The notes under the pieces are model-generated. The model was given only the letters and a program-made list of their open reading frames with translations. It was not told the DNA's origin and did not search any database. This document shows positions 4,840 through 48,257 of a stretch of DNA of 64,000 bases, in pieces (within the stretch, counting starts at the first letter, position 1; the number at the start of each line of letters is the position of its first letter). The stretch is from an uncultured virus (IMG/VR IMGVR_UViG_3300036766_002285). Its lineage: Duplodnaviria; Heunggongvirae; Uroviricota; Caudoviricetes. The DNA lies in IMG/VR virus record IMGVR_UViG_3300036766_002285; one strand, 5' to 3'. Position numbers and translations under genes: made by a program.

Positions 4840-6225
4840 TTAGGCCACCATTGCTGGTTGCTTCAAGATTGACGCTTCATCGGCCACAACATTTATATCT
4901 TTAGAATTCATGGAATTCTTAGGTATTTTAGTTTTATGTAGGCCTTCACGTCCAGACTCCGGACTACTCCCGGTGTTTACTACTGTATTGCTTGGCTGAC
5001 TAGGTAACCCCAGTTTAGCCAAATTCACTGCTGCATTAAGATCTCTATTCAAGACATTAGGGCAAACAGTGCATTTATATATTCGATCAAAGCGTGGTAG
5101 TTTGGCTTTCACTATTCCACACTTTGAACATGTTTTACTAGAGGGATAGAACCGGTCAGCTATAACTAAAGTTGAGCCATACCAGAGCGTCTTATATTTA
5201 AGTTGCCTGTAAAATTCTCCAAGACCGCCGTCAGACATCTGTTTTCCTAGATGACCGCTTTGTACTATACCTGCGACATGTAAGTCTTCAACGACGATTC
5301 TATCAAAGTTTTTGGCAATATTCGTCGTAGTTTTGTTGGTTAAGTCTCTACGACAATTAGCAGGCTTTGCATGTATACGTCGAAGTCTTTCTTGTTCTTT
5401 AATATATCGGTTTGATGGTTTAGTGCCGGTTTGCTTATTATGGTTTTGTTTGCGTGCCAAGTTCTTGTTTGAACGCCTAAGTAGTTTAGCCTGTTTATCT
5501 GTATTTCGTGGATTTTCAGTTCTCAAAAGCTCTTCACCAGTCGGACTTGCTCCAATATGCAAAGTATTTATACCCACATCAATACCTATAATGCGGTTGC
5601 CTTTGCGCGGTGCTGGAATATCACGATCTACTTCTACAGTGAAAGATACAAACCATCTGTTTTGTTTATGAGACAAGGTGGCTGCTATAATTCTGCCTTT
5701 ACCGCGCTCCAGATGTCTGGCCAGTTTGCGGGTACTCTCATGGGTGCGGATCTGACCTATAACCGGAAGGAGTATATGGTGACGATCCAAAGTTACCCCA
5801 ATGTTTCCTGTGGTGAAGCGAACACTCTCATGCTGACTTCGTTTATGATATTTAGGGAACCCTACAGGTTGACCTTTTCGTTTGCCTGTTAAAGAATCGC
5901 GATGGTTTGATACCCCTAAAGATAACCGTTTGGTGCCATCCGAGTAGGCTTCCTTGGAATTCTCTTTCCACCAGGGGGCAACAATGTCTTTCTGGGCGTT
6001 CCAATACTTTCTTAACGCATAATGTGAAGTCGGAAAATAGGGTGTCAGTTCACTTTTTGCCACACCGGAACTTTTCTCAGCTTTTCTCTGATCGCGTGTG
6101 GCTTTCATACAACCAAGAAGATAATTGTAAACATACCTGGAAGCTCCCACATGAGAGCTACAAGCCCGTTCTTGTTCAGGGGATGGGTCAAGAGCAAACT
6201 TGTAAGACAGGTGTATTACACTCAT
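4840..6225 (-). CDS. tnpB: IS607-type TnpB, actinobacterial type
   Basis: YKFALDPSPEQ; APWWKENSKEAY; RuvC GIDVG / VVEDL / NRDLNAA; Zn finger CSKCG-CTVC. Confidence 0.93.
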   Translation of the reverse strand: MSVIHLSYKFALDPSPEQERACSSHVGASRYVYNYLLGCMKATRDQRKAEKSSGVAKSELTPYFPTSHYALRKYWNAQKDIVAPWWKENSKEAYSDGTKRLSLGVSNHRDSLTGKRKGQPVGFPKYHKRSQHESVRFTTGNIGVTLDRHHILLPVIGQIRTHESTRKLARHLERGKGRIIAATLSHKQNRWFVSFTVEVDRDIPAPRKGNRIIGIDVGINTLHIGASPTGEELLRTENPRNTDKQAKLLRRSNKNLARKQNHNKQTGTKPSNRYIKEQERLRRIHAKPANCRRDLTNKTTTNIAKNFDRIVVEDLHVAGIVQSGHLGKQMSDGGLGEFYRQLKYKTLWYGSTLVIADRFYPSSKTCSKCGIVKAKLPRFDRIYKCTVCPNVLNRDLNAAVNLAKLGLPSQPSNTVVNTGSSPESGREGLHKTKIPKNSMNSKDINVVADEASILKQPAMVA

Positions 6226-9516: not shown

Positions 9517-11231
9517 TTTGTACTAGTTCCTAGTTTTATGGAACTTTATTGTGTTGTATAGTTGCATAATCTACTAGGTAAGGCATAGTATAAGGTATGA
9601 AGTTGCCTGAGTATGCAGTTAAAAAGCCGTCTCGTGTAGCGAAACCTAAAGGCCGGGTGTTACGTACCTTTGAGATGGTGCACGCGATGAACGCAGGTAA
9701 AGAGGAGCAAGTTCGGGCCGTCTATCACGCTTATCTACCACTGCTTGTTAAGACTTGCGCGATGCAGTATCGTCGGGTATTGTCTGGTGAAAAGATTTAT
9801 AACTGTGCTAACCCAAAACTTCTGGAAACAACCTTGTCTGAGCGTTACAAACGCAGTGCCAACAATCAGGCCTGCGAAACATTATCCTCCTGGGCTGCTC
9901 TTGTAGTAGTTGAGGTGCATAAGATTATCAAAAGTCTTGCCCATCTGTCGCATGAACATAAGAGCCGGCTACTCTATGTCAATGCTGCTCAACATTGGTA
10001 TCACACCGAAGATGATGGTACCTATCTTGTGCCCAGTTCCGTTCTCGATCCGGTTACCGGAAAATATCTGAAAGTTGCTAATAAGTTCGATGTGGTCAGT
10101 GCCGAGGATATGAAATTGTTGCGCTCAATCGTGAAACATGTTCGTAAGCACCGGGTGAGGCTCCCAGACTTATCCCACGTGCGTACCATGAAACTTAACG
10201 GAATTGTCTGCCAATGGGAAGCACCAGAATCTGCGAACAGTTTTGACTATTGGCTCCGGTTCTCTACTCTTACTAAAGGTAACCCGATACTCTTGCCGGT
10301 ACGTTCCACCTTTCATGAACAGGCACGTGAAGGGGTGTGGACTAACGCGACTCAAATCACGGTCCCTAAAACTGGACCTGTGGTCATCCGTATGGTGAAA
10401 GATGTTACCCCAGAATGTCGTCCAATACCTACTGGTGGGGTGGTTGGATTAGATTGGGGTATGAAAACGTTGTTTGCTACCTCCGAAGGCGGCTTGCTGG
10501 GACGGTCGTTTTATACCTGGCTTTTGAACATTGATAGTGAACTCACAGCCTTGACTGCGGCTCTGCAACGTCAAGGAATTAAACCCAGCACCTCGCCACG
10601 CTATCGCGCTATGCAGTCACGGATTAAGGCTTATGCTAAAAACGAGATCAACCGTATCTTGAACCGTATCGTAGACCTTTATGACCCAAGTGTTCTTGTT
10701 GTCGAGGAACTAAATTTTCGTCATGGTGGACTTTCTAAACGTTTGAATCGTATTATTAGCCGCATGGGTCGCGCTCAAGTGAAACAGAAACTTCAAGACC
10801 TCTCCCAAGACACCGGACTTGAAGTCACTATCGTCCCCGCAGCGTACAGCTCACAGGAATGTGTCGGTTGTGGTTTCGTAGACGACCGAAATAGAGTTAA
10901 AGAAGATTTTCGTTGCAAATTTTGTGGACGAAAAGGGCACGCCGATATTGAAGCTGCTCGTACAGTGAAGTCACGACGTTCGTGGCCGAGTGTGAGTTTG
11001 CAGTTCGGTAAGTCCAAAATCCTGCATAACATTGACGAACGGTTCACCCAGAGATGGGGAACCGATCCGAAGGCGCATCGCGCTAAGGGCCGTCGACCAC
11101 GTGCAGCGATAATACCAATACGCCCAAATGCAGACGGGCTAGGTGAGACATCAGATAACAGGTGCCTCACCAAAATTAGCATAAACAACGTCGCCTTAAA
11201 AGGGAACGTTGGTCTATGTTTTTAGATACTG
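9517..11231 (+). mobile_element. tnpB-only insertion element (probably IS607-like)
   Basis: Removal restores the host ORF in frame; TG(T) shared at both junctions; no terminal inverted repeats and no tnpA. Confidence 0.75.
9597..11225 (+). CDS. tnpB: Long (542 aa) TnpB-family RNA-guided nuclease
   Basis: RuvC GLDWG / VVEEL / HADIEAA; Zn finger CVGCG-CKFCG; N-terminal NAGK...LSERY pattern. Confidence 0.88.
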   Translation: MKLPEYAVKKPSRVAKPKGRVLRTFEMVHAMNAGKEEQVRAVYHAYLPLLVKTCAMQYRRVLSGEKIYNCANPKLLETTLSERYKRSANNQACETLSSWAALVVVEVHKIIKSLAHLSHEHKSRLLYVNAAQHWYHTEDDGTYLVPSSVLDPVTGKYLKVANKFDVVSAEDMKLLRSIVKHVRKHRVRLPDLSHVRTMKLNGIVCQWEAPESANSFDYWLRFSTLTKGNPILLPVRSTFHEQAREGVWTNATQITVPKTGPVVIRMVKDVTPECRPIPTGGVVGLDWGMKTLFATSEGGLLGRSFYTWLLNIDSELTALTAALQRQGIKPSTSPRYRAMQSRIKAYAKNEINRILNRIVDLYDPSVLVVEELNFRHGGLSKRLNRIISRMGRAQVKQKLQDLSQDTGLEVTIVPAAYSSQECVGCGFVDDRNRVKEDFRCKFCGRKGHADIEAARTVKSRRSWPSVSLQFGKSKILHNIDERFTQRWGTDPKAHRAKGRRPRAAIIPIRPNADGLGETSDNRCLTKISINNVALKGNVGLCF

Positions 11232-16039: not shown

Positions 16040-19000
16040 TTAACGCCTAGAATCAATAAAAGAAGTGCTAGAAAACCCATAGTTCACTAGTCTACGCATT
16101 AGTGTCTTTGAAGTACACCTCTGGCCACCATTTTCTAGTATGCAGGTTCGAGTTATAGTTGTAGTCATAGTTTCTATTACAGTAATCTTTGTAATTGCAA
16201 TATTTCTAGGAACTAGAGTAGTAGTGGTTGTAGAGTTACTAAATACCGTAGTTGAAGTTGTAGTAGATGGATTATTCAAAACAGTTGAAGTAGTAATATT
16301 CTCTAGTACTGTAGTTGGAACACTTGCTACAGTCGTTGATGTCGTAGTTGTGGTTTGTATTACGGGCGGTAGACTTGGCGCTCTTGGAATAATACGTGCC
16401 GAAGCATCAGAAGGGTCACTTTGTCCAGAGTTATTTACGGCAATAACTCTAAACTTATATGGTGTATCATTTTGTAGATTTACTAGAGTCACTCTCGTCA
16501 TAGCAGACTGACCAGTACTCATAAAGTCCCAAGATCTGCCACCAGTAGTAGTGTATTCTACTATATAATCTGTAATAGGAGTATCCCCAGAATCTGTGGG
16601 GGCACGCCAATGTAAAATCACACGGCGATTTCCAGGCGAACCAGTAACCCCGAAAGGTGCACTTGGTGCTCCAGATACTGGAATAGTAGTGGTTGTTGTT
16701 TCTGGGATAGTTGTTGTTGTAGTTTCCTGTACACTAGTAGTTGTATTTGGTATAGCTATAGTCGTGGTTGTTGCTACTGCGGGCGTTGCTCCAGCAGACA
16801 TTGCTGACTGCAAGCTTTCTCCAGCTCTGTTGATAGCTGTAGCTCTAAACTTATAGGTAGTACCGTTAGATAGACCAGTTATAGATACACTAGGGGTAGC
16901 AGATACGGTATCTGCAAAAGTAGTCCAGCTGGTGCCGGAATTGGTTGTATAATCTATCTTGTAGTCAGTAATTGCAGATCCACCATTATTAGGGGCAGTC
17001 CAAGTTAAATCTACTTGAGTGCTGCCAGCAGTAATATTAAGACTTGCTATTTTAGCTGGTTCGGTTGTAGAGTTGATAGTGCGGCCGGATCCTAGAGACA
17101 CTGCTGGTAGGTTATCACCCATCTCTAATGGCTCGTCTCCACGACTGCTATTATCATTGTAACCAGCCTGGCCAAATTGAGCGCTTCCCCAACATTTTAA
17201 AGTATTATCATCCAAAATAGCACAAGTATGTACGTTACCGGTACTGATTGCTTTAGCTGTACGCCCGACACCTAGATCTACAGCAAGCAAAGCGTCTCCC
17301 ATTTCATCTGGTTCATCGCCCAGCGAATTTCCGTTACTATAGCCAAGTATTCCTCCTCCCCAACATTTTACAGTAAAGTTGTCTAATATAACGCAAGCAT
17401 GAACATAGCTGGCATTAACAGCTATAGCGGTACGCGCAGATCCTAAATTTACTATTGGTAAATTATCACCCATTTCACCAGATTCATCACCACGATTATT
17501 AGTATCACCTAAACCGAGCTCGCCATCTACATTATATCCCCAACATTTTACGGTGTTGTTATCTAATATAGCACAAGCACTATCACCGCTAGTACTGATT
17601 GCTTTAGCGCTACGACCGGTGCCTAGGTCAACTATTGGTAAACTGTCTCCCATTTCATCTGGTTCATCTCCACGATAACTAGTATCTCCATAACCTAGTT
17701 CACCGGCGTCATTATATCCCCAACATTTTAAAGTATTATCATCCAAAATAGCACAAGTATGTGCGTCACCAGCACTAATTGCTTTAGCTGTACGCCCGGC
17801 ACCTAAATCAACTATTGGTAGACTGTCACCCATTTCACCTATCCCATCACCGCGTGGATTATTATCCCCGTAGCCTAATTGCCCAGCCCAATTAGCTCCC
17901 CAACATTTTAGGGTACTATTGTCTAATATTGCACAAGTATAATCACCACCAGCACTAATTGCTTTAGCTGTACGCCCGGCACCTAAATCAACTATTGGTA
18001 GACTGTCACCCATTTCACCTATCCCATCACCGCGTGGATTATTATCCCCGTAGCCTAATTGCCCAGCCCAATTAGCTCCCCAACATTTTAGGGTACTATT
18101 GTCTAATATTGCACAAGTATAATCACCACCAGCACTAATTGCTTTAGCTGTACGCCCAGTACCTAGGTCTATTGCTGGTAGCAAATCTCCCATAGAAGTA
18201 GTAGTATCACCGCGACTATTTTTGTCTCCTAAACCAAGCTGGCCAGAAGTATTGTACCCCCAACATTTTACGGTTAAATCATTTAGAATTACACAAGTGT
18301 GAAAAGAGTGCAAACTTAAAGCCGTGGCAGTAAGTGATGATCCTAGATTTATTGCAGACAGATTATCACCCATTTCATTAGAAGCATCTCCCAGAGATTG
18401 TGCATCACCGTAACCTAATCCGCCATTATAATTTCCTCCCCAACATTTCACAGTATTGTTGTCTAATATAGCACAAGTATGCAAAAAACCAGTAACGACA
18501 GTCACTGGAGTGCGCGCAGTGCCTAGATCTACGATAGGTAAATTATCGCCCATTTCTCCCGACTCGTTTCCGCGCCGGACATCATCACCATAGCCAGATT
18601 GTCCATAACTATTATCTCCCCAGCATTTTATGGTGTCATTGTCTAGTATTGCACAGGTGTGTGAAATACCCGCACTAATCATTTTAGCGGTACGGCCGGA
18701 ACCTAGATCCACTGCTAGTAAGTTATCACCCATTTCATCTGCGTTATCTCCGCGAATGACCGTATCACCATAACCAAGCCTGCCGTCAGAGTTTTCTCCC
18801 CAACATTTTACGGTATTATTATCTAATATGACGCAAGTATGTGAATTAACAGTACTAATTGCTTTAGCGGTACGCCCGGTACCAAGATCTACAGTAGGCA
18901 AATTATTGCCCATTTCGTTTGCGTTGTCCCCACGATTACTAGTGTCTCCATAGCCAAGTATACCACTATAGCCCCAGCCCCAGCATTTTACAGTATTATT

Positions 19001-20304: not shown

Positions 20305-20342
20305 AAAAAGCGCGGCAGGCAACATGCCAACCGCGCTTTTTT
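20305..20342. terminator. Bidirectional intrinsic terminator
   Basis: AAAAAGCGCGG-CAGGCAACATGCCAA-CCGCGCTTTTTT. Confidence 0.8.
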
Positions 20343-20351: not shown

Positions 20352-20903
20352 TTACAGGTATGTACCTGGACGAGAATCTGTCTCTTGTGTTAACAGCAAC
20401 GTTGCATTGTTCATATTTTTGACAATGCTTTTAGCATCTTCCAAAGCTTTTTGTGCTGAAACATTTAAAAGTTCTTCGTTCAGCAAAAATACTGAAGTGC
20501 CATGCACAAGATCTGCCCACTTTGATAGTTGAGCTGCCGCAAAATAAATGCCGTCCATGGTCACTTTCTCAGTGAGTACAGGCACCCAACGGTCTACTCC
20601 AGCTGCAGCAGATTCGTTTAAAGCTGCGCTTATTTCAATTCTAAGTGCCCCGTATTGCTTGGACATAATTTGAATTGTCTCTGGGCTTACTTGCCCACAT
20701 TTATATAGCTCAAGGGCGGTGTCGCGAAGAGTGTCTACTAGTCCAGAGTACCTGTACACAGTAGTCATGTTTAAGATTTCTTCAGGAGTTTTGACGGCAC
20801 TCCAGTCCGTAATTTCGTTTTTGAAAGGTTCTAATGATACACCCGGTTCAATAGTTGTTGAAATGACAGCTGGAACACGTGAAGCTTCTGGAATTATTCG
20901 CAT
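20352..20903 (-). CDS. Divergent bacterial proteasome activator (Bpa/PafE-like)
   Basis: C-terminal RPGTYL (G-x-Y-L proteasome-binding motif); YFAAAQLSKWADLVHG resembles Bpa LRIAQAQLVGWLEGLFHG; similar length. Confidence 0.65.
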   Translation of the reverse strand: MRIIPEASRVPAVISTTIEPGVSLEPFKNEITDWSAVKTPEEILNMTTVYRYSGLVDTLRDTALELYKCGQVSPETIQIMSKQYGALRIEISAALNESAAAGVDRWVPVLTEKVTMDGIYFAAAQLSKWADLVHGTSVFLLNEELLNVSAQKALEDAKSIVKNMNNATLLLTQETDSRPGTYL

Positions 20904-21034: not shown

Positions 21035-21805
21035 TTAAAAATCGAACCGATAACCTATACCACGAATAGCTTTAATGTGCCTAGGGGCGTTAGGCGAGTC
21101 CCCAATCTTTTTGCGAAGTCGCCTTATATGCTCAGTAACTGTAGCCGGGCTTCGATCATTTTTATCTACTTTCCAGACATGTTTTAGAAGGTCATTGCGA
21201 GTAAAAACTACTCCCTGGTTACGTACCATAAATAAAAGAAGGTCAAATTCACAAGTGGTTAAACTTATAACTGCACCCAGGCAGGTAACAAGGCGAGCTC
21301 CTATATCTATATCTATACCTTCACATGTCAGAACATCTTTATGTTTAGTATTACTGCGCTTTAAAACACTTTTAGCGCGGTGAGCAAGCTCGAGAGGTGA
21401 GAAAGGTTTAGTTACATAGTCATCAGCCCCACTTTCAAATCCCAGTATGCGGGCATCTTCCTCGCCCCGGTCAGTACAGATAATTACAGGGAGGTCATCG
21501 TACCCACGAAGAGTTTTTAGAAGCTCTAACCCATCGCCGTCGGGTAAATTCAAGTCTAGAATCATGAGATCCGGGCGGTAGTTGCTTAGGACAAATGTAG
21601 CATGGGCGGCTGTTTCTGCTGTCGTGCATAGAAAACCGCTACGTCGCAAAGTCTCTATAATACTATCACGGATATTGGTATCATTATCTACAACAAGTAC
21701 TCGGGATCCGGTGCTTATGGCAGTTGGCGTACTTTGCTTTGTATTGTTCACATATTTTATAGTCCATAGGGCTCTAAAGTACGCATGGGGGTTGACCTTT
21801 TGCAT
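21035..21805 (-). CDS. OmpR-family DNA-binding response regulator (true start probably later)
   Basis: LILDLNLPDGDG, GADDYVTKPFS, winged-helix TVTEHIRRLRKKI...RGIGYRF. Confidence 0.92.
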   Translation of the reverse strand: MQKVNPHAYFRALWTIKYVNNTKQSTPTAISTGSRVLVVDNDTNIRDSIIETLRRSGFLCTTAETAAHATFVLSNYRPDLMILDLNLPDGDGLELLKTLRGYDDLPVIICTDRGEEDARILGFESGADDYVTKPFSPLELAHRAKSVLKRSNTKHKDVLTCEGIDIDIGARLVTCLGAVISLTTCEFDLLLFMVRNQGVVFTRNDLLKHVWKVDKNDRSPATVTEHIRRLRKKIGDSPNAPRHIKAIRGIGYRFDF

Positions 21806-21893: not shown

Positions 21894-22184
21894 ATGACAA
21901 CTGCAGTAGACACCGATACAATAACAAAAGAATTAGCAGGAGTATTGGACGGTTTCTGGTATGTCATTGTCTATAATGACGATGTCACTACCTTTGATAC
22001 AGTAGAGCGCGCCCTAGTAGAGTTATTTGCTCACACACCTCAAGCCGCTCACGCGTTAGCTATGCGAATTCACACCCATGGGAAGGCAATTGTAGCTATG
22101 TGCTCTCACGCCGAAGCACTGAAGGGCCAAAGCGGCTTACAAGCCAGAAAAATACTATGCACCATAGAAGAAGCCGGAAAATAG
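21894..22184 (+). CDS. clpS: ATP-dependent Clp protease adaptor ClpS
   Basis: VIVYNDDVTTFDTV...AMRIHTHGKAIV. Confidence 0.85.
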   Translation: MTTAVDTDTITKELAGVLDGFWYVIVYNDDVTTFDTVERALVELFAHTPQAAHALAMRIHTHGKAIVAMCSHAEALKGQSGLQARKILCTIEEAGK

Positions 22185-23444: not shown

Positions 23445-23918
23445 ATGATAAATATTTGTGAAGAGTATACCAAGGATTATACCAAAGAAGAGATCACTTT
23501 AGAGTTAGCTAATAATCCAAAGCTAACCCCAAGAGAGCTAGAGATCCTTGAAGCTCTAGCTGCTTGGGCCGATTGTTTGACTAAAAACTCAAGCAGACAA
23601 GAAGCAGTAGATGAGTTTGCAAAATGGTTGAATGCTAACGTTCCTTCGGCCCCGGCTGGTGTTTATCCTCTTAGTTTTAGCTTTTCTGAGTCTTTACGTC
23701 ACGAACTCTTTGTTTGGGGACAAATTGCAGGCAATTCACTTTGGGACAGTGAAGTACTCCAAGAAATGGTTGTAGCCAGAGCCGCCGGCGATTCTGATAA
23801 AACTCAAGCTGCTTGGCTTAAATTAAACAGAGAGTGGCGAGTGCTAGCAATGCTGCAGCCAGGAGATGAGCAATATTTCTGGAACAATGTAATGCGTGCT
23901 GCCAACAAACTGCCATAA
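23445..23918 (+). CDS. Tandem family protein 1 of 3
   Basis: YTKEEI...WxQIxGNxLWDSE motif shared by three adjacent genes. Confidence 0.75.
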   Translation: MINICEEYTKDYTKEEITLELANNPKLTPRELEILEALAAWADCLTKNSSRQEAVDEFAKWLNANVPSAPAGVYPLSFSFSESLRHELFVWGQIAGNSLWDSEVLQEMVVARAAGDSDKTQAAWLKLNREWRVLAMLQPGDEQYFWNNVMRAANKLP

Positions 23919-23981
23919 TACCAGTTACTTATAATCCAGCCACTATAGTATTTAGTAAGCAGCTACTTAAGGAGAAATGTT

Positions 23982-24422
23982 ATGGATGAAGAATACACAA
24001 GAGAAGAAATTGAACTGTATTCTAGTACTGGATATTGGAAAGGAAAAGATGAGGTATTATTAAAATGGGCAGATCTTATAGCTGAGAGTTCGAGTCGCAC
24101 TCAGGCTGTAGACACCTTCGCAAGATGGCTACATGCCCGCGATCCTGCGTCCAGTTTAGACAGTTGGCCGCTCGGTGTATATGTATCCCAAACCCTATCT
24201 CAAGAGTTGTTTACTTGGAGTCAAATTCCAGGTAACAAACTTTGGGATAGCGAAGTACTTCAAGAAATGATCGCAGCTAGAGCAGCTGGAGACCCGGGTG
24301 CGACCCAAACAGCTTGGAATAAACTTAGTAAAGAATGGCGGATATTAGCACTTAAGCAGCCAATCGATGAACAGCGGTTCTGGGGCAAGGTGCACGTAGC
24401 TGCGTCCAGGCTAATTTCGTAG
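23982..24422 (+). CDS. Tandem family protein 2 of 3
   Basis: WSQIPGNKLWDSEVLQEM. Confidence 0.75.
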   Translation: MDEEYTREEIELYSSTGYWKGKDEVLLKWADLIAESSSRTQAVDTFARWLHARDPASSLDSWPLGVYVSQTLSQELFTWSQIPGNKLWDSEVLQEMIAARAAGDPGATQTAWNKLSKEWRILALKQPIDEQRFWGKVHVAASRLIS

Positions 24423-24484
24423 CTTTGTTACTTGCAGGATCGCTACAACAGTATACAGTGAACAACTACTCAAGGAGAAATGTG

Positions 24485-24979
24485 ATGGAAAAAGAGTACA
24501 CAAAAGAAGAGATTTTATCTCGCAGTGTTGAGGGAAGTGAACAATTCACGAAGCGAAATTGGAGAAATATTCAAACAGATACTTCACAGCTAAAGTGGGT
24601 TAGTTGCTTAGAAAGTGCTCCGGATCGTAATGCCGCAGTTGTCATGTTCGCTAAATGGTTGGACAAAGAAGTACTTGAGCAGCTTCAGTCTGAAAGAAAT
24701 GCTTGGCAAATAAATGCTGTACTAGATATGTCGCATTTATTAGTTCAAGATCTGTACAGATGGGCACAAATTGCTGGCAACAATTTATGGGACAGCGAGC
24801 TGCTACAAAAAGCTCAAGTTGCCAGACAGACTAATGACAGAGCTTGCGTGCTAGACTGTGTAGCCAACATGAGCAGAGCTTGGAGATTAATGCTTGTACG
24901 CCAAGAATCAGCTGAAGCGGCATTTTGGCAAGCAACTATAGAAGAACGTATAGCCGATAAGAAAACAAATTTAGAATAA
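24485..24979 (+). CDS. Tandem family protein 3 of 3
   Basis: AAGGAG SD before MEKEYTKEEI; WAQIAGNNLWDSE. Confidence 0.75.
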   Translation: MEKEYTKEEILSRSVEGSEQFTKRNWRNIQTDTSQLKWVSCLESAPDRNAAVVMFAKWLDKEVLEQLQSERNAWQINAVLDMSHLLVQDLYRWAQIAGNNLWDSELLQKAQVARQTNDRACVLDCVANMSRAWRLMLVRQESAEAAFWQATIEERIADKKTNLE

Positions 24980-25012: not shown

Positions 25013-25462
25013 TTAAGGCTTAACTATTCTAACAGGCCGCACGTACATTAGTTCACTTTTCTCCTCATAACAATGATCCTCATAGAGATCCCCACCATAA
25101 CCCACAACGAACTGGAAAAAATGTGCCTCATTTAGACCGGTACTATTAGCACTCCAGTACTTGTCATCATAATCTGCATCCATGTCCCCTATGTCCGCTA
25201 AGGGGTCACTATTATCGATAGCTGTAAAATTTCCAAGACCCATAGAATACACTTCATACCAGGCTGCCACTAAAATTTCGATGGTTGGTAAAAACCAATC
25301 TGTATGGCCATTTCCAGCATAATTTATGCAAGCCTGTCTGGCGTCTTCCCAGTTTAACTTGGGGTCACTATCTGTACCATACCAAGTATATGGAGCCAAT
25401 TCGATTTTACCCCATTTGTAGTCACTAAAAATTTTAAATATTATATTTTTATTCTGGCTCAT
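25013..25462 (-). CDS. DUF1566-like (C-type-lectin-fold) protein
   Basis: DWFLPT..L / YWS / VRPVR. Confidence 0.75.
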   Translation of the reverse strand: MSQNKNIIFKIFSDYKWGKIELAPYTWYGTDSDPKLNWEDARQACINYAGNGHTDWFLPTIEILVAAWYEVYSMGLGNFTAIDNSDPLADIGDMDADYDDKYWSANSTGLNEAHFFQFVVGYGGDLYEDHCYEEKSELMYVRPVRIVKP

Positions 25463-25937
25463 ACTTGCTCCTCATTATCTTGAACTATTCTAACTGGACG
25501 AACGAACATTAATTCGCTTTTCTTATCATGATTATCATCATCTTCGACATAGTCAAACGTACAAAAAGCAGCTTCATCTATACCACGCTCAGTGCTGCTC
25601 CAATAGCAGTCATTAATACAAACAAAAGTTGCACCGCAGGTAGTCACATTCTCAAAAATCGAAAATTCTCCAAGTTCGTTTCTGTGGAGTTCACTCTGCA
25701 TTGCTGTTAAAACATCAATACTTGGTAAAAACCAATCTTTATTTCCATCACCAGTATAGCTATTGCAAGCCGACACAGCATCCTGCCAGCTTAAGGCGGG
25801 GTCACTGGCGGTACCGAACCAGGTATTGGGAGCAACCTCAACTTGCCAGCTATCACGCCTATCACTTAAAAATTTAAATATTATATTTTTATTCTGGCTC
25901 ATACTTGCTCCTCATTATCTTGAACTATTCTAACTGG
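25433..25937. repeat. 65-bp perfect direct repeats (25433-25497 and 25873-25937) spanning gene junctions
   Basis: Both encode the ...PVRIVQDNEEQV*/MSQNKNIIFK junction. Confidence 0.85.
25459..25902 (-). CDS. DUF1566-like protein
   Basis: DWFLPSID / YWSSTE / VRPVR. Confidence 0.75.
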   Translation of the reverse strand: MSQNKNIIFKFLSDRRDSWQVEVAPNTWFGTASDPALSWQDAVSACNSYTGDGNKDWFLPSIDVLTAMQSELHRNELGEFSIFENVTTCGATFVCINDCYWSSTERGIDEAAFCTFDYVEDDDNHDKKSELMFVRPVRIVQDNEEQV

Positions 25938-26336
25938 TCGCACATACATCAGTTCACTTTTTTTGGCATAATTATCATCATCGGAACCAAAATCGAACAT
26001 AACATATGCAGCTTCTTCTATACCACGTTCAGTACAGCTCCAGTACTGAACGTCAACAGAATTCTCATCATCAATGACACCCGTTTCAATGACCGTAAAT
26101 TCTCCAAGGTTGCTACAATGAAGCTCATCTTGCATTGCTCTTAAAACATCAATACTTGGTAAAAACCAATCTCTATGACCCGCCCTAGTATAGTCAGCAC
26201 AAGCTTGTTTGGCGTCTTTCCAGTTTAATTTAGGGTCACTAGAACCACGAAACCAAGTACAGGGAGCAACCTCAACCTGGTAATTGGTTGTATAGTTGCT
26301 TCGAAATTTAAATATTATATCCTTATTTGATCCCAT
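25899..26336 (-). CDS. DUF1566-like protein
   Basis: DWFLPSID / YWSCTE / VRPVR. Confidence 0.75.
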   Translation of the reverse strand: MGSNKDIIFKFRSNYTTNYQVEVAPCTWFRGSSDPKLNWKDAKQACADYTRAGHRDWFLPSIDVLRAMQDELHCSNLGEFTVIETGVIDDENSVDVQYWSCTERGIEEAAYVMFDFGSDDDNYAKKSELMYVRPVRIVQDNEEQV

Positions 26337-26428: not shown

Positions 26429-27259
26429 ATGACAAATACTGATCACTTGGACACTATTTCGCAAAAAGATGCTGTTGATAGTACCAAAAAGTTACAAGGA
26501 CTTCTGCCAAGCGCAATACAAAAAATTGTTACAGCAAGTGCCCCGCTCGAGATAGTTTTATATGGATCTTTAGCACGTGGTACCGACGGTCCAAATTCTG
26601 ATATAGATTTACTCGTAGTATTCGAGCAACTTAATCAAGCAGAGAGAAAGCTACTACTTGACCGCTGCTATGCGGCTATAAGCGGCAAAGTGGATGTGAC
26701 GATCGCAGATCTTGCTACTATTACAAAATATCGCGATACTGTGGGGTCACTGTTTTATTGGACGCAACGTGACGGAAAAGTTGTTTATACAAAACCAGGT
26801 GCCACAAAAAGTGTCACAGACCCATACACTCCTATAATACTTACGCCAAGTGAGATTTTAGCTGAACAACTACTTGAAGCAACCAAATGGTTAGATCGTG
26901 CTAAAGGACAGCTCGAGTCCATAAAGAAAATACAAGCCGCTCAACCAGATATGATGGGAAGCTATTTCGGTTATAGCGCTTTCAATGCTAGTCAGCTTGC
27001 ATTGAAAGCTGGCCTTGTTTATTATAATACACCCTTTCGAAAAACATATGATCTTGCATTCTTGGTAAGCCAACTACCAGCAGCACTACAAGAAAAATTT
27101 GATAATTTAGATCTAAACCAACTACAAAAGTGGTCTGACAACGGCTGGCCGCTAGATGATTGGGATCTTCGCGAAGAAATACAAGATGACACTATTTATG
27201 AGACGTGCACACCCCTTGCAGAATATATAATAACTACTATTGACGGCGTAGTGCAATGA
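26429..27259 (+). CDS. Minimal nucleotidyltransferase (MNT) fused to a HEPN domain
   Basis: LYGSLARGTDGPNSDIDLLVV; WLDRA...F.A.Q.ALKA...PFRKTYDL; TATAAT just before ATG 26429. Confidence 0.82.
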   Translation: MTNTDHLDTISQKDAVDSTKKLQGLLPSAIQKIVTASAPLEIVLYGSLARGTDGPNSDIDLLVVFEQLNQAERKLLLDRCYAAISGKVDVTIADLATITKYRDTVGSLFYWTQRDGKVVYTKPGATKSVTDPYTPIILTPSEILAEQLLEATKWLDRAKGQLESIKKIQAAQPDMMGSYFGYSAFNASQLALKAGLVYYNTPFRKTYDLAFLVSQLPAALQEKFDNLDLNQLQKWSDNGWPLDDWDLREEIQDDTIYETCTPLAEYIITTIDGVVQ

Positions 27260-28062
27260 AATCTTACAAAAAGAGAGACTATATAAAAAAGTCAATTGTA
27301 ACTAGCATTGTAGCAATTATGCTAGCTCTAGTATCTTCTGTCTCGGCTTCAGCCATTTCGAACGGAGAGCCAGTAGCGGATCCGGTTACGGAATTTCCTA
27401 TGGTAGTTCCAGTATGGACGAACGGTTTTACCTTATGTTCTGGCACGTTGCTTTCGCAGCGAATAGTGTTAACCTCCGCTCACTGTATTATAGGACGTAA
27501 AATACTACAAGTCGAAATTGGAGCCTCAAAACTTAATACAGTCAGCAAATACAAAGTTGATGCAGTATGGATCCACCCAGGCTATGAAGAAGTTTACCAT
27601 CATAATGATCTGGCGCTTTTGCACCTAAATATGGCCGTACCCGTCACTCAGTTTGCTAAACTTCCAGAGAGCAAGCAAGCTATTCTAGATAAAAGCTTCC
27701 TTTTCGTTGGCTGGGGCAATGTGCAAGAAGGAGTCAGAACAGGCGATCTACACAAGCTAGTGTTAGATAACAAAACTTTGCTTGCCAAAGGTTTGTGGCC
27801 AACAGCGTTTGATTCAACAATCATGCTTGGGGCCGGAAAGCGATTCGCTGACGGAGTGCGTTATGGAAGCGGCTGCATATCTGACTCTGGCGCCCCGCTG
27901 TTTACAGTCGACGGGAAAACCATTATAGGGGTAGCTTCAATGGCTATGCTTCCTTGCGGCAGTCCTTATCCAACTACATTTACTCGTCTCGATTATTATC
28001 TAGATGACATTAAAGCAGGCATGAGGCAGGTTATTAAAAACGTAAAATGGCTTCGAAGGTAG
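27256..28062 (+). CDS. Secreted trypsin-like (S1) serine protease
   Basis: Signal peptide; CSGTL...TSAHC, NDLALL, SDSGAP. Confidence 0.88.
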   Translation: MKSYKKRDYIKKSIVTSIVAIMLALVSSVSASAISNGEPVADPVTEFPMVVPVWTNGFTLCSGTLLSQRIVLTSAHCIIGRKILQVEIGASKLNTVSKYKVDAVWIHPGYEEVYHHNDLALLHLNMAVPVTQFAKLPESKQAILDKSFLFVGWGNVQEGVRTGDLHKLVLDNKTLLAKGLWPTAFDSTIMLGAGKRFADGVRYGSGCISDSGAPLFTVDGKTIIGVASMAMLPCGSPYPTTFTRLDYYLDDIKAGMRQVIKNVKWLRR

Positions 28063-28409: not shown

Positions 28410-28530
28410 CATCCTCCTCACAGTTTTAACAACTATAAGGATTCCAGTTACTATTGTAGTAGTAACTGAGGTACGCGGCTCACAGGCCTGGATAACTCCA
28501 AGCCTCCCCGCGAAAATACGACGTGTCCCG
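28406..28530 (-). ncRNA. Putative omegaRNA 3' scaffold / right end, lineage A copy 1
   Basis: CCTCAGTTACT...AGTAACTGGAATCC-hairpin-GGAGGATGTCAA is shared by three copies and similarity ends exactly at TCAA. Confidence 0.75.
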
Positions 28531-29620
28531 CCGCAATATTTTTAGCTGCATTCACATCAGCGTTCTCTGCATGTTCGCACAATAAACACTCAAATTCCGC
28601 TTGGCTCTTGCGGTTCTTGGTGTCAGTGAAAGTGCAAACATTGCAGCGTATAGATGTGTTTACAGGGTTTATTTTTTCTAAACGGTCACCTATTTTATCT
28701 TGGAATCTTCTGTCACATCGACCCCAACCATTCTTTCGAATTTCTCTATTTAATCCAGACTTGGCTTTAACGTTCTTACCTGGGTTAGTAAGAGTACCTT
28801 TGGCAGATTTGGTCATATTCTTTATTTTTAGATTCTCGATTCTGATTATATCAAAGCTGCCAGCAAGTCTGGTAGTCAGTTTTTCAACTGCATCGATGCT
28901 GCGGTTTACTCTACGATGTTCAAGTTTGCTAATCAGTAGCTTGGTTTTCTTGTGCCTGTTAGATCCAGGTTTTTGACGGGACAGTTTACGTTTAAGGTGT
29001 AACATCCTTTGTTGTTCTACTGCACTAAGTCCAGGAATTTTGACCACTTCACCAGTACTCATTGTAAATGACTGGGCTACACCTCTATCTATACCCACAA
29101 TTTTTCCATTACCTGGAGCTGGGATAGGTTTAGGGATTACTGCAAATGCTATCCACCAGCATCCAGCTCGATCTAAAGTTACTCGATATGACTTAATGGC
29201 ACCTGGGTTTCTGGTCCAACGCCAGTCTACCCAACCTATTTTGGGGATATTTACTCTAGCACGTTTACGTGACATGCGCTCAAAGCGTTTTGCAGCAAGG
29301 CCAACAATACGGAAACCTTCATTGTGGCCAGCTTTACGAAAGGTTGGATGCCCATGAGTACCATTATGCCAGTTTCTAAATCCTTGATCCAAATCTCGAA
29401 GAGCTTGCTGTTGTACTATATAAACACCTTCTTTGAGCCAGGAGTCTTTACGAACCTCTGTAAGTTGAGCAGACTGGGCATTGTAATTAGGGGTAGGACC
29501 GAACGCTTTACGATACATATTGCGTTGCTCTAGACCCATGTTGTATACGTAACGAGCATGACCACAATGTTCTAATAGAAGAATTTCTTGAGTTTTGGTA
29601 GGATAGAGACGGAATTTCAT
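28451..29620 (-). CDS. tnpB: IS200/IS605-type TnpB, lineage A copy 1 (intact)
   Basis: MKFRLYPT HTH; RuvC GIDRG / IRIENL / NADVNAA; Zn finger. Confidence 0.95.
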   Translation of the reverse strand: MKFRLYPTKTQEILLLEHCGHARYVYNMGLEQRNMYRKAFGPTPNYNAQSAQLTEVRKDSWLKEGVYIVQQQALRDLDQGFRNWHNGTHGHPTFRKAGHNEGFRIVGLAAKRFERMSRKRARVNIPKIGWVDWRWTRNPGAIKSYRVTLDRAGCWWIAFAVIPKPIPAPGNGKIVGIDRGVAQSFTMSTGEVVKIPGLSAVEQQRMLHLKRKLSRQKPGSNRHKKTKLLISKLEHRRVNRSIDAVEKLTTRLAGSFDIIRIENLKIKNMTKSAKGTLTNPGKNVKAKSGLNREIRKNGWGRCDRRFQDKIGDRLEKINPVNTSIRCNVCTFTDTKNRKSQAEFECLLCEHAENADVNAAKNIAAGHVVFSRGGLELSRPVSRVPQLLLQ

Positions 29621-33640: not shown

Positions 33641-33710
33641 CAAGGCGGATTCCTCTCAGCATAGTGTAATGCTTTATCGCCTACACATGCTAGGGGGCCG
33701 CCACTATTTT
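33641..33710 (+). ncRNA. Putative small hairpin RNA
   Basis: GGCGG/CCGCC, TTCCT/AGGGG, AGCAT/ATGCT and GTGTA/TACAC stems; TTGCTT-16-TACAGT upstream. Confidence 0.45.
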
Positions 33711-33773
33711 ATCATAATTATTGTAATATCTTGCCTATATAGCAATGTCCCACACAATATAGAGTATATTATT

Positions 33774-34829
33774 ATGATCCAACATCAAATTAAACTCAGA
33801 CTTAAATCAAAACAAGAAAAACAGCTGAACGATTGGCTGTTTTATCTTACCGGAGTCTATAACTGGGCTGTCCGTAAAATTGAGCAAGATGCTAAATATG
33901 GTATTTATTACACGCGCTACGATTTCATAAATCTTCTCGCTGGCCACGGTAAAAAGATGGGTATCCCAAGCCATACTATGCAGGGTATATTAGATACGGT
34001 CTTCACTGCATGGCAACGCTGTTTCAAAAAACTTGGTGGTAAACCTAAACTGAAAAGTAATCGCCGTAAACTTAATTCCATACCATTCCCAGACCCTATT
34101 AGTGCTCCTGTTGGTAATTACATTAAATTGCCTGGTATAGGTCAAGTACGTTTTCATAAACAAACTCTTCCCGTAGGTAAAATTAAATGTGGTCGAATAA
34201 TTAAACAGGCTTCCGGTTGGTATTTATGCTTATTTATTGACGCCAAAAGAGCTCCTATTGAACGTAAAGTTTTTGGTGAAATAGGTATCGACCCTGGATA
34301 TATAAACCTGCTAACCTTATCTACCGGGGAGAAGATTCCTCATCCAAAAGAACTAGAGAACTCTGCTATACGTCTAGGACAAGCTCAACGTGGTGGCAAT
34401 ACTAAACTAGTAGCTCGGATTAGTGAAAAGATCAAGAACCAACGTAAAGATCGTAACCATAAGACATCTTATCGGTTGGTACAAGAAAATTCTTTAATAG
34501 CATTCTCTAAAGATAACCATATAAAGATAGCAAAAAAGTTAGGAAAGTCTGTGGCTTCAGCAAGTCACGGGGAACTTCGTAAACAACTCGCATACAAGAG
34601 CCTTGCCGGCGGTACGCGCTATATCGAAGTTCCTTCTAAGAATTCCACTCGTACATGTTCAACCTGTGGGGCGCTATCTGGCCCTACAGGCTTTAGCATG
34701 CTGACAGTAAGGCATTGGAAGTGTGATTGTGGAATCACTCATGACCGCGATATTAACGCGGCTGTGAACACTCTAATGCTGGGCCTGGTGCAGGCCTCGA
34801 ATTTTAAAGAGTTATCTCTAGTTAGGTAA
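33774..34829 (+). CDS. tnpB: TnpB lineage B copy 2 (intact frame, atypical RuvC-II)
   Basis: Start MIQHQIKLRL by alignment with copy 1; GIDPG, IAFSKDN, CSTCG, HDRDINAA. Confidence 0.9.
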   Translation: MIQHQIKLRLKSKQEKQLNDWLFYLTGVYNWAVRKIEQDAKYGIYYTRYDFINLLAGHGKKMGIPSHTMQGILDTVFTAWQRCFKKLGGKPKLKSNRRKLNSIPFPDPISAPVGNYIKLPGIGQVRFHKQTLPVGKIKCGRIIKQASGWYLCLFIDAKRAPIERKVFGEIGIDPGYINLLTLSTGEKIPHPKELENSAIRLGQAQRGGNTKLVARISEKIKNQRKDRNHKTSYRLVQENSLIAFSKDNHIKIAKKLGKSVASASHGELRKQLAYKSLAGGTRYIEVPSKNSTRTCSTCGALSGPTGFSMLTVRHWKCDCGITHDRDINAAVNTLMLGLVQASNFKELSLVR

Positions 34830-36655: not shown

Positions 36656-37633
36656 TTAGTTTTCCCGTACTTTTTGAGATAGAACCTTAGCTAAATTCTC
36701 TATAGCCGTTTTTTGCTTAGAAGTTAATTCACTAGGAACAACAATATCTACTGTCACAATTAAGTCACCAAAAACCTTATTTACTACTACTCCTTGTTTT
36801 CTTACGCGATGTCTGGACCCAGTCTGCGTTCCTGGTGCCAGTCGCAGGGTTACTCCAAGTCCATCCAAAGTTGGAACTTTTATATCTCCACCTAAAGCTG
36901 CCTCTGTAAAAGTGATAGGCACGCGCACTTTAAGATTTAAACCTTCTCGCTCAAATATTGGATGCGGCATTACTTTACACACTATATAGAGATCTCCAGG
37001 CTTCCCCCCATTATGGCCAACTTCCCCCCGGCCCGCTACTTTTATTCGTTGTCCGTCATCAACTCCAGCCGGGACCCGTATTTTCATATTTTGGTTACTA
37101 CTTGTCTTTCCGGTCCCCTTGCATGCTTTACATAAGCGTTCTCCTGTATTTGAACTAATGCCAGATCCGTGGCAGATACTGCATTGAGTATCAAATGCGA
37201 TCTCTAAGGTATTTAGCCCATGTATGGCATCAACAAAATCTAAAGTCACAGCTACTTCTATATCGCTGCCACGTATAGCACCAAAATTGTTACGTGTTTG
37301 CGCACCAAACAGATGAGAAAATAAGTCACTCATTTCATCACTATCCATATTAAAATTACTGGTTCTTGGTCCAGAAGTTCCGTTGCCATTATAGGGACTA
37401 TATCCAATTTGGCGAGCCTCGTCATATTCTTTGCGTTTCTCTGCATTACCCACCACATCATAGGCTTGACTGATTTCTTTGAACTTATCTTCGGATGCAG
37501 TTTTGTTAGGATTTACATCTGGATGAAACTTTTGGGCCAATTTCCTGTATGCTTTGGTTATTTCTTTATCAGTAGAATTGCTACTAACTCCAAGTATTTT
37601 ATAGTAGTCTTTTTCTAACCATTCACGCTGCAT
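36656..37633 (-). CDS. dnaJ: Chaperone DnaJ with shortened zinc-finger region
   Basis: [12 protein letters not shown], only two CxxCxGxG motifs, C-terminal domains. Confidence 0.93.
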
Positions 37634-37635
37634 AA

Positions 37636-38118
37636 TTATCCCCGCACTTTCACGAGCGCTGCTCGCAGTACTTGGCCGCGAAAGCAGTAACCTGGTCTTA
37701 GAATTTCAGTAATTATACATTTGTCTGTTACGCCGGGCTCATGAATCATAGCCTGACTATAAGTCGGATCAAAAATTTTCCCTTTCAGATCAAGTGTCTC
37801 AAGACCCTGGGTTTGCAATGCTCCTAGTAACAATGCTCTGATTGGCTCTGCCTCAAGATTTCCATGAACAATTGCAGCATCAAGGGCATCTAAGGTTGGC
37901 AGCAAAGATTCAATGGTTCTCCCAGACCCTCGATCTATCTCCAGACCAGTCTGGCTAGCTATTCTTTTACGATAGTTCTCAAAGTCTGCTTGCAGTCTGA
38001 GGATACAATCACGTAGATCGTCTCGCTGCTTTAGCAGCTCTTCAGTGCTTTCTGTAATCGGGGCATTTTCTTGAAGATCTATAAATCCGCGTTCAAAAAT
38101 TTCTGCTTGTTCATCCAT
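37636..38118 (-). CDS. grpE: Nucleotide exchange factor GrpE
   Basis: [21 protein letters not shown]...LRAALVKV. Confidence 0.93.
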
Positions 38119-38136
38119 AATATAGTCGTTTACGTT

Positions 38137-39954
38137 CTATTTTTCTTCAACTATTTCAGCATCTACAATATCATTATCCGTGGCCTTTGGATCTGGCCCG
38201 CTTGCTGTATTCTGACTGGCTGTTTCATAGAGTTTACGACCAAATTCTTGGCTGGAAGCTCTAAGTTTTTCGACCACATTTTTTATCGCAGCAGTTTCAT
38301 TACTATCTAGAACCTTTTTAAGTTCCGCACAAAGCTCTTCTACTGGTGTTTTGTCAGCCTGTGATAGTTTCTCACCAGCTTCACGGAGAGTTTTTTCTGT
38401 CTGATACAGCAACGAATCTGCACTATTGCGAACTTCGGCCATCTCTCTGGCCTCGTGATCCTCTTTTTCATGCGCTTGTGCATCTTTGACCATTTTATCT
38501 ATAGCATCTTTAGATAACGAAGATTGTCCAGTAATAGTCATGGACTGTACTTTAGATGTGGCAAGATCTTTAGCCGACACATGCACTATACCATTAGCGT
38601 CAATATCAAAAGTGACTTCAATCTGGGGAACTCCTCTAGGTGCTGGGGGCAGGTCAGTTAAACTAAATTTTCCAAGAGTCTTATTGAAACTAGCCATTTC
38701 GCGTTCTCCTTGTAACACATGTATCTCAACTGAAGGCTGCAGGTCATCAGCTGTAGAAAATATTTCAGATCGCTTAGTTGGAATAGTGGTATTACGTTCA
38801 ATAAGTTTAGTCATGACTCCACCTTTAGTTTCAATACCTAAAGATAATGGCGTGACATCCAATAACAAGATATCTTTAACATCTCCTCTAAGCACTCCCG
38901 CTTGTACAGCCGCTCCTATAGCAACTACTTCATCTGGGTTTACGGTACGGTTCGGCTCACGGCCACCCAAGAGTTGTACAAGTTCACTTACCGCAGGCAT
39001 TCTGGTAGATCCGCCAACTAATATAACATGGTCTAATGCACCTTTTGATAGTTTAGCATCCGATAAAGCTTGTTCAAAAGGTTTACGGCAGCGCTCGAGA
39101 AGATCTATCGTGAGCTCTTGAAATTTTGCCCGAGATAGAACCTCATCTAGGTGTAGCGGTCCCGCCGCTGTTGCTGTGATAAAAGGCAGATTTATTTGTG
39201 TTTGCATGGTTTGTGATAGTTCAATCTTTGCTTTTTCAGCTGCTTCCTTAAGTCTTTGTGCAGCCATTTTATCTGTACCCAAGTCAATACCGTGGGCGGA
39301 TTTAAATTGTTGTACTAGCCAATCTATAATGCGCTGGTCCCAATCGTCACCACCGAGATGAGAATCCCCGTGGGTACTTTTTACTTCAAATATACCATCA
39401 CCTATTTCTAAAACGCTAACATCAAAAGTTCCACCACCCAAGTCAAATACTAAAATAGTTTCGTCTTTTCCTTCCTTGTCTAGACCGTACGCAAGAGCAG
39501 CCGCTGTAGGTTCGTTAATAATTCGTAGCACCTCGAGGCCCGCAATTTGGCCCGCTTCTTTGGTAGCTGTACGCTGTGCGTCATCAAAATATGCAGGTAC
39601 TGTAATTACAGCTTGGGTTACTGGTTCTCCTAAGTAAGCTTCAGCATCCCGTTTTAGTTTCATTAAAATTCTAGCAGAGATTTCTTGAGGGGTATATTTT
39701 TTCCCATCAATATCGTCAGATTTCCAACTCTCTCCCATATGGCGCTTTATACTGCGAAATGTTCTACTCGGATTAGTAATTGCTTGTCGTTTGGCTACCT
39801 CTCCTACTAAAACTTCTCCAGCTTTTGAAAAAGCCACCACCGATGGAGTGGTTCTTGCCCCTTCTGAGTTCGGTATTACAATAGGTTCTCCGGCTTCTAA
39901 AACAGATATCACTGAATTAGTAGTTCCCAGGTCAATTCCAACAGCTTTGCTCAT
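38137..39954 (-). CDS. dnaK: Chaperone DnaK (monoderm/actinobacterial type)
   Basis: [14 protein letters not shown]; short N-terminal subdomain; [10 protein letters not shown] tail. Confidence 0.98.
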
Positions 39955-40135
39955 TATGTTTCCTCTCAAAGATACGTTTTTGTGTTTATGGTATATATAC
40001 AATAGTTCCCAGTCGCATGCGAATTGCAATCATTTAAAACACAAAAAGACCCACCAAATCCTTTATTTTACAGAACCACACAAATGTGCCAGTAGTCACT
40101 AAAAGAACAAAACATCAAACTCTTAAATACTGTAA

Positions 40136-40331
40136 TTAAGGCAGGGGTCTAATTATCTTTGCCAGTAGTTCGCTACCACCAACTTTAACACTCAACTCTC
40201 CACTGTGCGTGGTCATAATTGTTCCACTAACACCAATTAAGTCGCCTCGGTCCCAGTCACCAGTCCTAGCAAAAGTCTCATCTCCAACAACCGCTTGTGA
40301 AACAAATAGTTGAATTTCACCCGACTGGTCC
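40136..40331 (-). pseudogene. lysS: Fragment of lysyl-tRNA synthetase anticodon-binding OB-fold domain (not in ORF track)
   Basis: DQSGEIQLFVSQAVVGDETFARTGDWDRGDLIGVSGTIMTTHSGELSVKVGGSELLAKIIRPLP*; no start codon. Confidence 0.82.
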
Positions 40332-40460
40332 TTGACATCCTCCCTGTAGCCTTTAACAACTATAAGGATTCCAGCTACTAAACTAACAGTAACTGAGGTT
40401 CACGGTTCACAGACCCGGTTAGCACCAAGTCTCCCCGCGCGCTTACGACGTGTCCCGCTA
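40332..40460 (-). ncRNA. Putative omegaRNA 3' scaffold / right end, lineage A copy 3
   Basis: Same scaffold ending GGAGGATGTCAA. Confidence 0.75.
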
Positions 40461-47468: not shown

Positions 47469-48257
47469 TTAGGCAAGCCCGGCTGCAGCCCAAAATGCGC
47501 TAATGTGTCGTGCTATGTCTTGCTTAGATAAACATCCATTATCGCAAGGAAGTTCAACTACAAAAGGTGTAGACGTGCTAATATTTTTATATATAAATTG
47601 GGTAGCATTCCCGCTACATTCTCCTTCTCCACAAAATACCTCATAGACAGGCATTTTAGACACTTTTCCATAAGTATCTAAAACTCTTGGGGTAGCCACC
47701 CCTGTGCGCGCTTTATCTACTACTCCACCAGTTACCGCCCCATGATAAAATAAAACCATCTCTGGTTGTATTTCTAGGAAAAACTTTTCTAGTGCTAAAG
47801 TTTCTGGCTCCGAATCAGCAGTTATTCCTGAGCACACTTTGCTAGGACAGGTAGTTTTTTTAAAAAAAGCATCAAAGTTTCTATTTAAATCTATTTTATG
47901 AGCATTCCATCGCCAGTTGAGAATATTACCATCTGGATTAGCGGTATCTATAATCCAAAGATCGAATCCTGCCGGTACTTTACTCCTTGCTAGGGTTGTT
48001 GTTATTACCATTCCTGATTTTTCATTACCATGAATACTTCCTACCACAACCACCACTTTACCACCAGGTGTACCAAACCTAGTGGCTATAATACTACGAC
48101 CCTGCACGGAAGTTCCAAGTACGCGGCTTTCGATTATAGAGCGTGCCGCTGCTATATTAGTCGGCCCAGTCACAAGTAGCGTACTAATAAAAATTACAGC
48201 AAGTAGTTTAATTATATTTTTGATGACAATAACTCTATGCGCGATTGTTATATACAC
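47469..48257 (-). CDS. Secreted M14 zinc carboxypeptidase (MpaA-like murein peptide amidase)
   Basis: Signal peptide; IHGNE, NPDG, DLNRNF, SEPET, VELP. Confidence 0.85.
   Translation of the reverse strand: MYITIAHRVIVIKNIIKLLAVIFISTLLVTGPTNIAAARSIIESRVLGTSVQGRSIIATRFGTPGGKVVVVVGSIHGNEKSGMVITTTLARSKVPAGFDLWIIDTANPDGNILNWRWNAHKIDLNRNFDAFFKKTTCPSKVCSGITADSEPETLALEKFFLEIQPEMVLFYHGAVTGGVVDKARTGVATPRVLDTYGKVSKMPVYEVFCGEGECSGNATQFIYKNISTSTPFVVELPCDNGCLSKQDIARHISAFWAAAGLA

Follow-up and report, generated by a model that had tools for sequence, protein, structure and literature searches.

The window, by which we mean the whole 64,000-nucleotide stretch of DNA analysed here, lies within a 154,978-base IMG/VR record that is itself part of a 616,293-base contig. 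The gene under study, which we call Bpa-like, sits between a response regulator gene and an ORF of unknown function, away from the dnaE-type locus at which the hosts carry bpa. The features on which the argument draws are listed below, in coordinates of the window unless stated otherwise.

20352-20903, minus strand: Bpa-like gene, 183 aa, from ATG at 20903 to TAA at 20352
20460-20792, minus strand: four-helix core with the Bpa fold, residues 38-148 (AF2, VIA, Foldseek)
20499-20540, minus strand: AAAQLSKWADLVHG segment of helix 4, counterpart of AQAQLVGWLEGLFHG in Bpa (profile alignments)
20352-20372, minus strand: predicted docking tail, RPGTYL and stop, identical to the majority Bpa tail of Acidimicrobiia
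20305-20341, minus strand: intrinsic terminator hairpin directly 3' of the Bpa-like stop, with A and U runs flanking both sides
21035-21805, minus strand: OmpR-type response regulator, upstream of the Bpa-like gene and co-directional with it
21894-22184, plus strand: ClpS adaptor homologue, 1 kb from the Bpa-like gene (Pfam PF02617, E = 5e-16)
36656-39954, minus strand: dnaK-grpE-dnaJ of the Ilumatobacteraceae type, without hspR and HAIR operator (sequence comparison, tree)
21894-22184, 27256-28062 and 47469-48257, and 47505-49136 of the 155-kb record: proteolysis genes of the element

An in-frame GTG at 20945, upstream of the ATG, would give an alternative 197-aa form; the protein collection lists the 183-aa form. 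The original prediction, made from the letters alone, had described a helical protein of about 183 residues with an RPGTYL end and an internal segment. The ORF, whose product closes with DSRPGTYL and carries AAAQLSKWADLVHG at residues 122-135, agrees with that description, as does the four-helix model presented below. The terminator hairpin has a folding energy of -25.4 kcal/mol (z = -5.05), which was matched by none of 200 shuffles. The GC3 of the gene is 0.34, and the 5-95% range of the element is 0.26-0.39. A promoter scan at the gene returned 8 sites against 6.1 expected, which is no excess. Among the public sequencing runs listed, one contains the gene region, a sediment metagenome that may be the source, and no RNA run does; the contigs of that run leave the gene uncovered and are uninformative on its presence.

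Used as a single query, the Bpa-like protein had no match in Pfam (at E up to 10), NCBIfam, PHROGs or the PDB, and it does not reach the gathering cut-off of PF10759 (29.5 bits). A word-indexed search returned the protein itself as the sole match, and the ESM Atlas gave nothing usable. Compared directly with host Bpa, it scored 15.5 bits with its tail, a value reached by none of 5000 shuffles, and 3.9 bits without its tail, a value equalled by 57 of 5000. By these sequence comparisons, homology to Bpa is clear only through the family to which the protein belongs, and the body match of the single protein is weak. With an E limit of 0.001, a HMMER search of 1.84 billion representatives recovered 71 relatives, which are 22-45% identical to it, and the mean column identity across the resulting 72-member family is 24%. 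Alignment of the family with host Bpa by hhalign gave a probability of 97.6% (E = 3.6e-12, 139 columns) for the full proteins and of 95.9% (E = 5.7e-9) for tail-less cores. An HMM of the tail-less family matched all 34 tail-less host Bpa proteins at 13.8-25.4 bits, compared with 9.1 bits for the best of 3400 shuffles. When the family profile was searched against the whole PDB, ranks 1-6 of 17 were M. tuberculosis Bpa (E = 0.0023-0.063). Only one of the 72 members matched PF10759 (E = 7.7e-4).

Predicted structure gave a concordant result. An AlphaFold model built from the 72 family rows, with canonical Bpa rows left out, is all-helical with four helices and has a mean pLDDT of 86 (94-98 over residues 41-160); a single-sequence model reached a pLDDT of 41 and was of no use. 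With the family-based model as query, the first eight Foldseek matches were all Bpa (TM by target 0.77-0.81; E between 1.4e-3 and 3.4e-3, none of these matches being below 0.001), and the next fold followed at E = 0.33. VIA aligned the model with M. tuberculosis Bpa at Z scores of 13.7 and 13.6 (8RGX and 5LFP; 1.8 Å over 103 residues), and the next unrelated fold among 48,161 chains had a Z of 8.6, values to be read with the caveat that helical bundles may reach a Z of about 13 by chance. No match was obtained among viral structure models (best E = 0.094). By profiles and predicted fold, the Bpa-like protein is a divergent Bpa homologue. The likeness to Bpa/PafE claimed from the sequence was thereby borne out, since the family profile, notably with cores only, the PDB-wide search and the predicted fold, in both VIA and Foldseek, all point to Bpa.

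What is this family? Across its members S53, D57, R60, D61, L126 and D131 are near-invariant. Among 30 clusters that we looked up, any name given was "hypothetical protein", and the sequences came from MAG records and metagenomic assemblies. The three longest contigs bearing relatives measure 291, 212 and 112 kb, and an Acidimicrobiia MAG contains one annotated relative, on a 10.6-kb contig. Scans of IMG/VR, JGI metagenomes, INPHARED phages and PLSDB, which depended on exact short words with 4 or 5 of the 72 members as queries, recovered no genomic context of relatives; that the family is present on mobile elements beyond this gene is something we infer. A quick protein tree separates 82 family rows from 42 canonical Bpa rows (support 99), and the branch between the two sets amounts to about 4 changes per column; the tree has long branches and shows separation from canonical Bpa, neither root nor donor. 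Because this split lies on a long branch, we read the family as an old sister lineage and not as a recent capture. Recent capture of a host bpa was considered and rejected, as the body of the protein is not nested among canonical Bpa. Judged from its sequences, the family is a separate, fast-evolving lineage, old and diverse. The divergent mobile copy of the original prediction is not a stray one, the protein being one member of an old and diverse family of 72 clusters.

The replicon that carries the gene looks like a giant phage or plasmid, as judged from its gene content. Its GC content is 41.6%, compared with 46-74% for 80 host dnaK loci. Of the ORFs scanned against Pfam, 38 of 71 had no match. 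The sole tRNA in 155 kb is a tRNA-Ile with anticodon TAT, rare in bacteria (1611-1685 of the 155-kb record), and several operons are partial: infC without rplT, ruvAB without ruvC, and sufB without sufCD. This low GC, the out-of-order host-type genes, the one tRNA, the several TnpB genes, the pentapeptide-repeat genes and the many unmatched ORFs suit a giant phage or plasmid, and the element-borne location first proposed for the Bpa-like gene is likely. No virion gene (capsid, terminase, portal or tail), however, was found in the 155-kb record, which covers about a quarter of the contig: a comparison of 57 ORFs with PHROGs gave none, and a terminase search had no match.

One potential explanation is instead that a low-GC, hitherto unsampled lineage of Acidimicrobiia carries the gene as a second Bpa on its chromosome, with the 616-kb contig as part of that chromosome. 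The IMG/VR class of the record ("provirus"), the missing virion genes, the relative annotated in a MAG and the many cell-type genes (DnaK, three tRNA synthetases, IF3, SufB, RuvAB and two-component systems) would fit such a lineage. We consider it improbable in view of the GC difference, the broken operons, the single tRNA, the unmatched ORFs, the position away from the host bpa locus and the failure to find the family in four draws of 401 genomes. The family profile at E 1e-10 matched 0 of 401 host-family genomes, 0 of 401 from the order and 0 of 401 from the phylum, in draws that share some genomes and with no more than 9 candidates scored in any one genome. In the class draw it matched 3 of 401 at E 1e-8 (about 37 bits), two of which coincide with canonical bpa loci. 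The family is by these counts not a core gene. On its own record the profile reached E = 1.3e-45, the Bpa-like protein itself being part of the profile. Canonical Bpa was present in 109 of 151 class genomes.

Several other observations were made on the element. Dozens of pentapeptide-repeat genes are present. Transposon-type genes lie at 28451-29620, 40400-41548, 33669-34829, 9597-11225 and 4840-6225 of the window, one of them a confirmed TnpB, and at 28451-29620 the contig depth rises to between four and five times background, as for a multicopy insertion sequence. At 17515-18977, a contig of the sediment run (depth 39) skips 1461 bases within an RCC1-repeat gene, which may reflect repeat-number variation or an assembly difference. 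Tandem triplets of paralogues occur at 23445-24979 and 25013-26336, comprising three unknown proteins of 146-184 aa and three Lcl_C-like proteins (first E = 2e-6). The proteolysis kit listed above consists of a ClpS adaptor, a trypsin-like protease, an M14 carboxypeptidase and a short FtsH-like protease; no 20S subunit genes (prcAB) were found in the 155-kb record.

The dnaK operon points to the host. Among the matches listed, the identity between element DnaK and its Acidimicrobiia counterparts reaches 81%, in a comparison that kept at least 80 host dnaK loci from about 5 of 64 parts scanned. A DnaK tree (75 rows) places the element's protein inside a clade with six freshwater-type Ilumatobacteraceae/Acidimicrobiia MAGs at a support of 99; its branch, of length 0.24, is three-fold longer than those of its neighbours (at most 0.08). 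With DnaK as the marker, Ilumatobacteraceae are the likely host. Four close host genomes all encode Bpa, 20S alpha, 20S beta and ARC, all retain PrcA Arg26 and Lys52 (M. tuberculosis numbering), and all carry bpa between a phosphatase-family gene and dnaE. Between tnpB and dnaK of the element, on the minus strand at about 40130-40400, some 88 codons between two stops form a frame that resembles by eye the OB-fold part of lysyl-tRNA synthetase and is perhaps a lysS remnant cut by insertion.

A G-x-Y-[LIVM] end is found in the Bpa-like protein alone among the 163 ORFs of the 155-kb record. Residue frequencies predict 3.6e-6 RPGTYL ends and 0.08 bare G-x-Y-[LIVM] ends in 163 ORFs, and we reject chance as the origin of the RPGTYL end. 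A 14-base RPGTYL-stop pattern had 13 matches in IMG/VR, none closing an open frame longer than 54 aa. In a set of 34 Acidimicrobiia Bpa proteins (the 4 close hosts and the best 30 of 111 matches), 24 end in RPGTYL and 31 in GTYL; in 25 further phylum-wide Bpa loci, a set without two loci from unpublished genomes, 17 end in GQYL and 1 in GTYL. Because RPGTYL is the majority end in the class whereas GQYL dominates the wider phylum, the tail is an exact copy of that of host-class Bpa; the match may stem from convergence, recombination or descent. In the close hosts themselves, Bpa ends in RPGTYL and ARC ends in TGQYL (4 of 4). The tail had at first been read against GQYL; it has the form of a docking end, but not of a degraded GQYL. 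The Gln of GQYL is dispensable in M. tuberculosis Bpa (PMC12288473), and the penultimate Tyr of that protein is reported to pack on PrcA R26 and its terminal carboxyl on K52 (10.1101/249060).

The tail is also a family trait. A G-x-Y-[LIVM] end is present in 59 of 72 members, with Gly at position -4 in 66 and Tyr at -2 in 63, and at positions -5 to -8 the commonest residue occurs in at most 19 of 72. This combination of conserved and varying positions indicates a tail under selection behind a variable linker. The distance from the conserved His to the tail is 50 residues in the Bpa-like protein (host Bpa median, 44.5), and the three family rows nearest to it in the tree also end in GTY[LV] (support 86). 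Could the protein instead be an ATP-independent holdase ring serving the many proteins of the element, with a secondary role for the tail? Tail-less PafE still keeps a client soluble (10.1101/249060), and one clade of nine family members lacks the Tyr tail, so a Bpa-like fold can persist without 20S docking. We regard this idea as highly improbable, as the penultimate Tyr is otherwise kept throughout a family with so little overall identity.

The clade without the Tyr tail (support 93; P0137, P0141, P0147, P0150, P0151, P0152, P0157, P0168 and P0182) ends in [H/Q]FG[MFI] plus a few residues, and [IV]GF occurs near the end of five family members (P0126, P0141, P0145, P0159 and P0172). The IGF loop is the docking element of Clp ATPases on ClpP. 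By analogy, the FG-tailed clade may have changed its partner protease, for example to ClpP.

Canonical Bpa is a dodecamer in which more than six tails are needed, and it binds HspR via H131, F138 and R145 (PMC11953334 and PMC13066552); a crosslink of its K55 to HspR has also been seen. H134 of the Bpa-like protein corresponds to H131 of M. tuberculosis, which is kept in 42 of 72 family members. The position of F138 is L141, mostly L, V or I across the family, and that of R145 is V148, mostly Ala in the family and R in 24 of 34 hosts. At the K55 position 71 of the 72 members carry Asp, whereas all 34 hosts carry K or R; the L58 position has become Arg. The lower band stays hydrophobic (F139 in 59 of 72). 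Of the HspR-binding set, the Bpa-like protein retains only the His. Because of this loss and the score below the Pfam cut-off, we class the protein in a new sister family and not as a member of PF10759. On these residue comparisons we lean toward a working cap with a substrate range other than that of host Bpa.

The original prediction suggested that the protein might remove HspR, which would switch on the host heat-shock regulon; it also named defence proteins as possible targets. The likely hosts have the HspR circuit: in all 49 loci whose downstream flank is complete, a motif search places hspR behind dnaJ, and 29 of 63 loci carry HAIR-like operators with at most 2 mismatches to what we take to be the HAIR consensus, a count made with no shuffle control. 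The kept His and the hydrophobic residue at the F138 position are also compatible with HspR binding. Over 36656-40420, however, the element's own dnaK-grpE-dnaJ operon has neither hspR nor a HAIR operator (in the 466 nt scanned, the nearest site has 5 mismatches), so the element would not need to remove HspR to make its own chaperones. The R145 and K55 positions are changed, and host Bpa would do the job already. These data weaken the HspR proposal, with two of three HspR-binding positions and the K55 position altered, and we now consider it distinctly improbable.

The reading that we favor, at a probability of roughly 0.55, is that a divergent Bpa homologue on a probable giant phage- or plasmid-like replicon of Ilumatobacteraceae forms a ring, docks on the host 20S and opens its gate without ATP. 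In this proposal, drawn from sequence and a predicted model, the protein would assemble into a Bpa-type ring, the RPGTYL tails would dock in the R26/K52 pocket of the host 20S alpha ring, and the docked ring would open the gate. Substrate choice would be altered relative to host Bpa by the Asp at the K55 position and the loss of R145, with H131 kept. Candidate substrates are proteins by which the host holds the element in check, or unfolded protein arising while the element is expressed. Partial displacement of host Mpa/ARC and Bpa might occur as a side effect.

That side effect could also be the function itself. A proteasome blocker would dock through its tail and deliver no substrate, either occupying the alpha ring or poisoning host Bpa rings as a mixed oligomer, and by shutting out Mpa/ARC it would let element proteins escape Pup-dependent degradation. 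We treat this as the main rival because excess M. tuberculosis Bpa blocks Mpa-dependent degradation of PanB-Pup in a tail-dependent manner (PMC4254994). The changed ring-lining positions fit as well, and since six-tail PafE rings are reported to be unable to degrade HspR (10.1101/249060), rings of mixed composition or smaller size would lack activity. Blocking would require hardly more than a tail, yet the entire four-helix core is kept together with its near-invariant residues, H131 persists in 42 of 72 members, and the lower band remains hydrophobic. At 17-19% identity, mixed rings with host Bpa are doubtful. We therefore judge blocking alone to be rather unlikely, although the activator and blocker readings are compatible with each other and sequence by itself does not discriminate an activator from a competitor.

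How does the proposed activator compare with known systems? It shares with Bpa/PafE (Rv3780; PF10759; 5LFJ, 5LFP, 5IET, 6BGL and 8RGX) the modelled four-helix fold, a colinear profile match, the kept His131 and a G-x-Y-L end at a similar distance from helix 4. It differs from them in an identity of only 13-16% in structural alignment, a score below the Pfam cut-off, its separate long branch and fast evolution, the changes at K55 (to Asp), L58 (to Arg) and R145 (lost), and a gene located off the bpa locus on a low-GC giant replicon whose 155-kb record lacks 20S genes. Compared with chromosomal Bpa of Acidimicrobiia, its end is identical to that of 24 of 34, whereas it is 20-24% identical to them over the aligned length; in an alignment of 18 Acidimicrobiia Bpa, the others share 54-84% identity with the first. 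Mpa/ARC uses the same alpha-ring pocket through its GQYL tail (TGQYL in 4 of 4 hosts), but the Bpa-like protein has no AAA+ domain and no Pup link. Host proteases are also redirected by phage adaptors such as T4 PinA, which acts on Lon, and lambda cIII, which acts on FtsH; the shared theme is that a compartmental protease of the host is steered by a mobile element. PinA and cIII are small inhibitors of other proteases, and such adaptors are not known to include a captured proteasome cap. In published descriptions, actinobacteria that possess a proteasome encode Bpa in one chromosomal gene. We found no phage- or plasmid-borne or second-family Bpa in the open literature, as the original prediction had supposed; supplements to phage genomes may list such genes as hypothetical.

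We tentatively suggest, as a broader possibility that we rate below the reading of this one protein, that giant actinobacterial phages or plasmids carry a family of host-tail-matched caps that retarget the 20S to destroy defence or regulatory proteins of the host, with one clade perhaps docking on another protease such as ClpP. If true, this would be a bacterial counterpart of the hijacking of the ubiquitin-proteasome system by eukaryotic viruses, and such a mobile cap, matched to its host, would for the first time indicate that elements manipulate the bacterial proteasome. It would bear on the role of the proteasome outside mycobacteria and on the competition of activators for the 20S. Natural variation in the family, 72 members that share a fold and a tail but differ in ring lining, would provide a panel for the study of substrate choice by Bpa.
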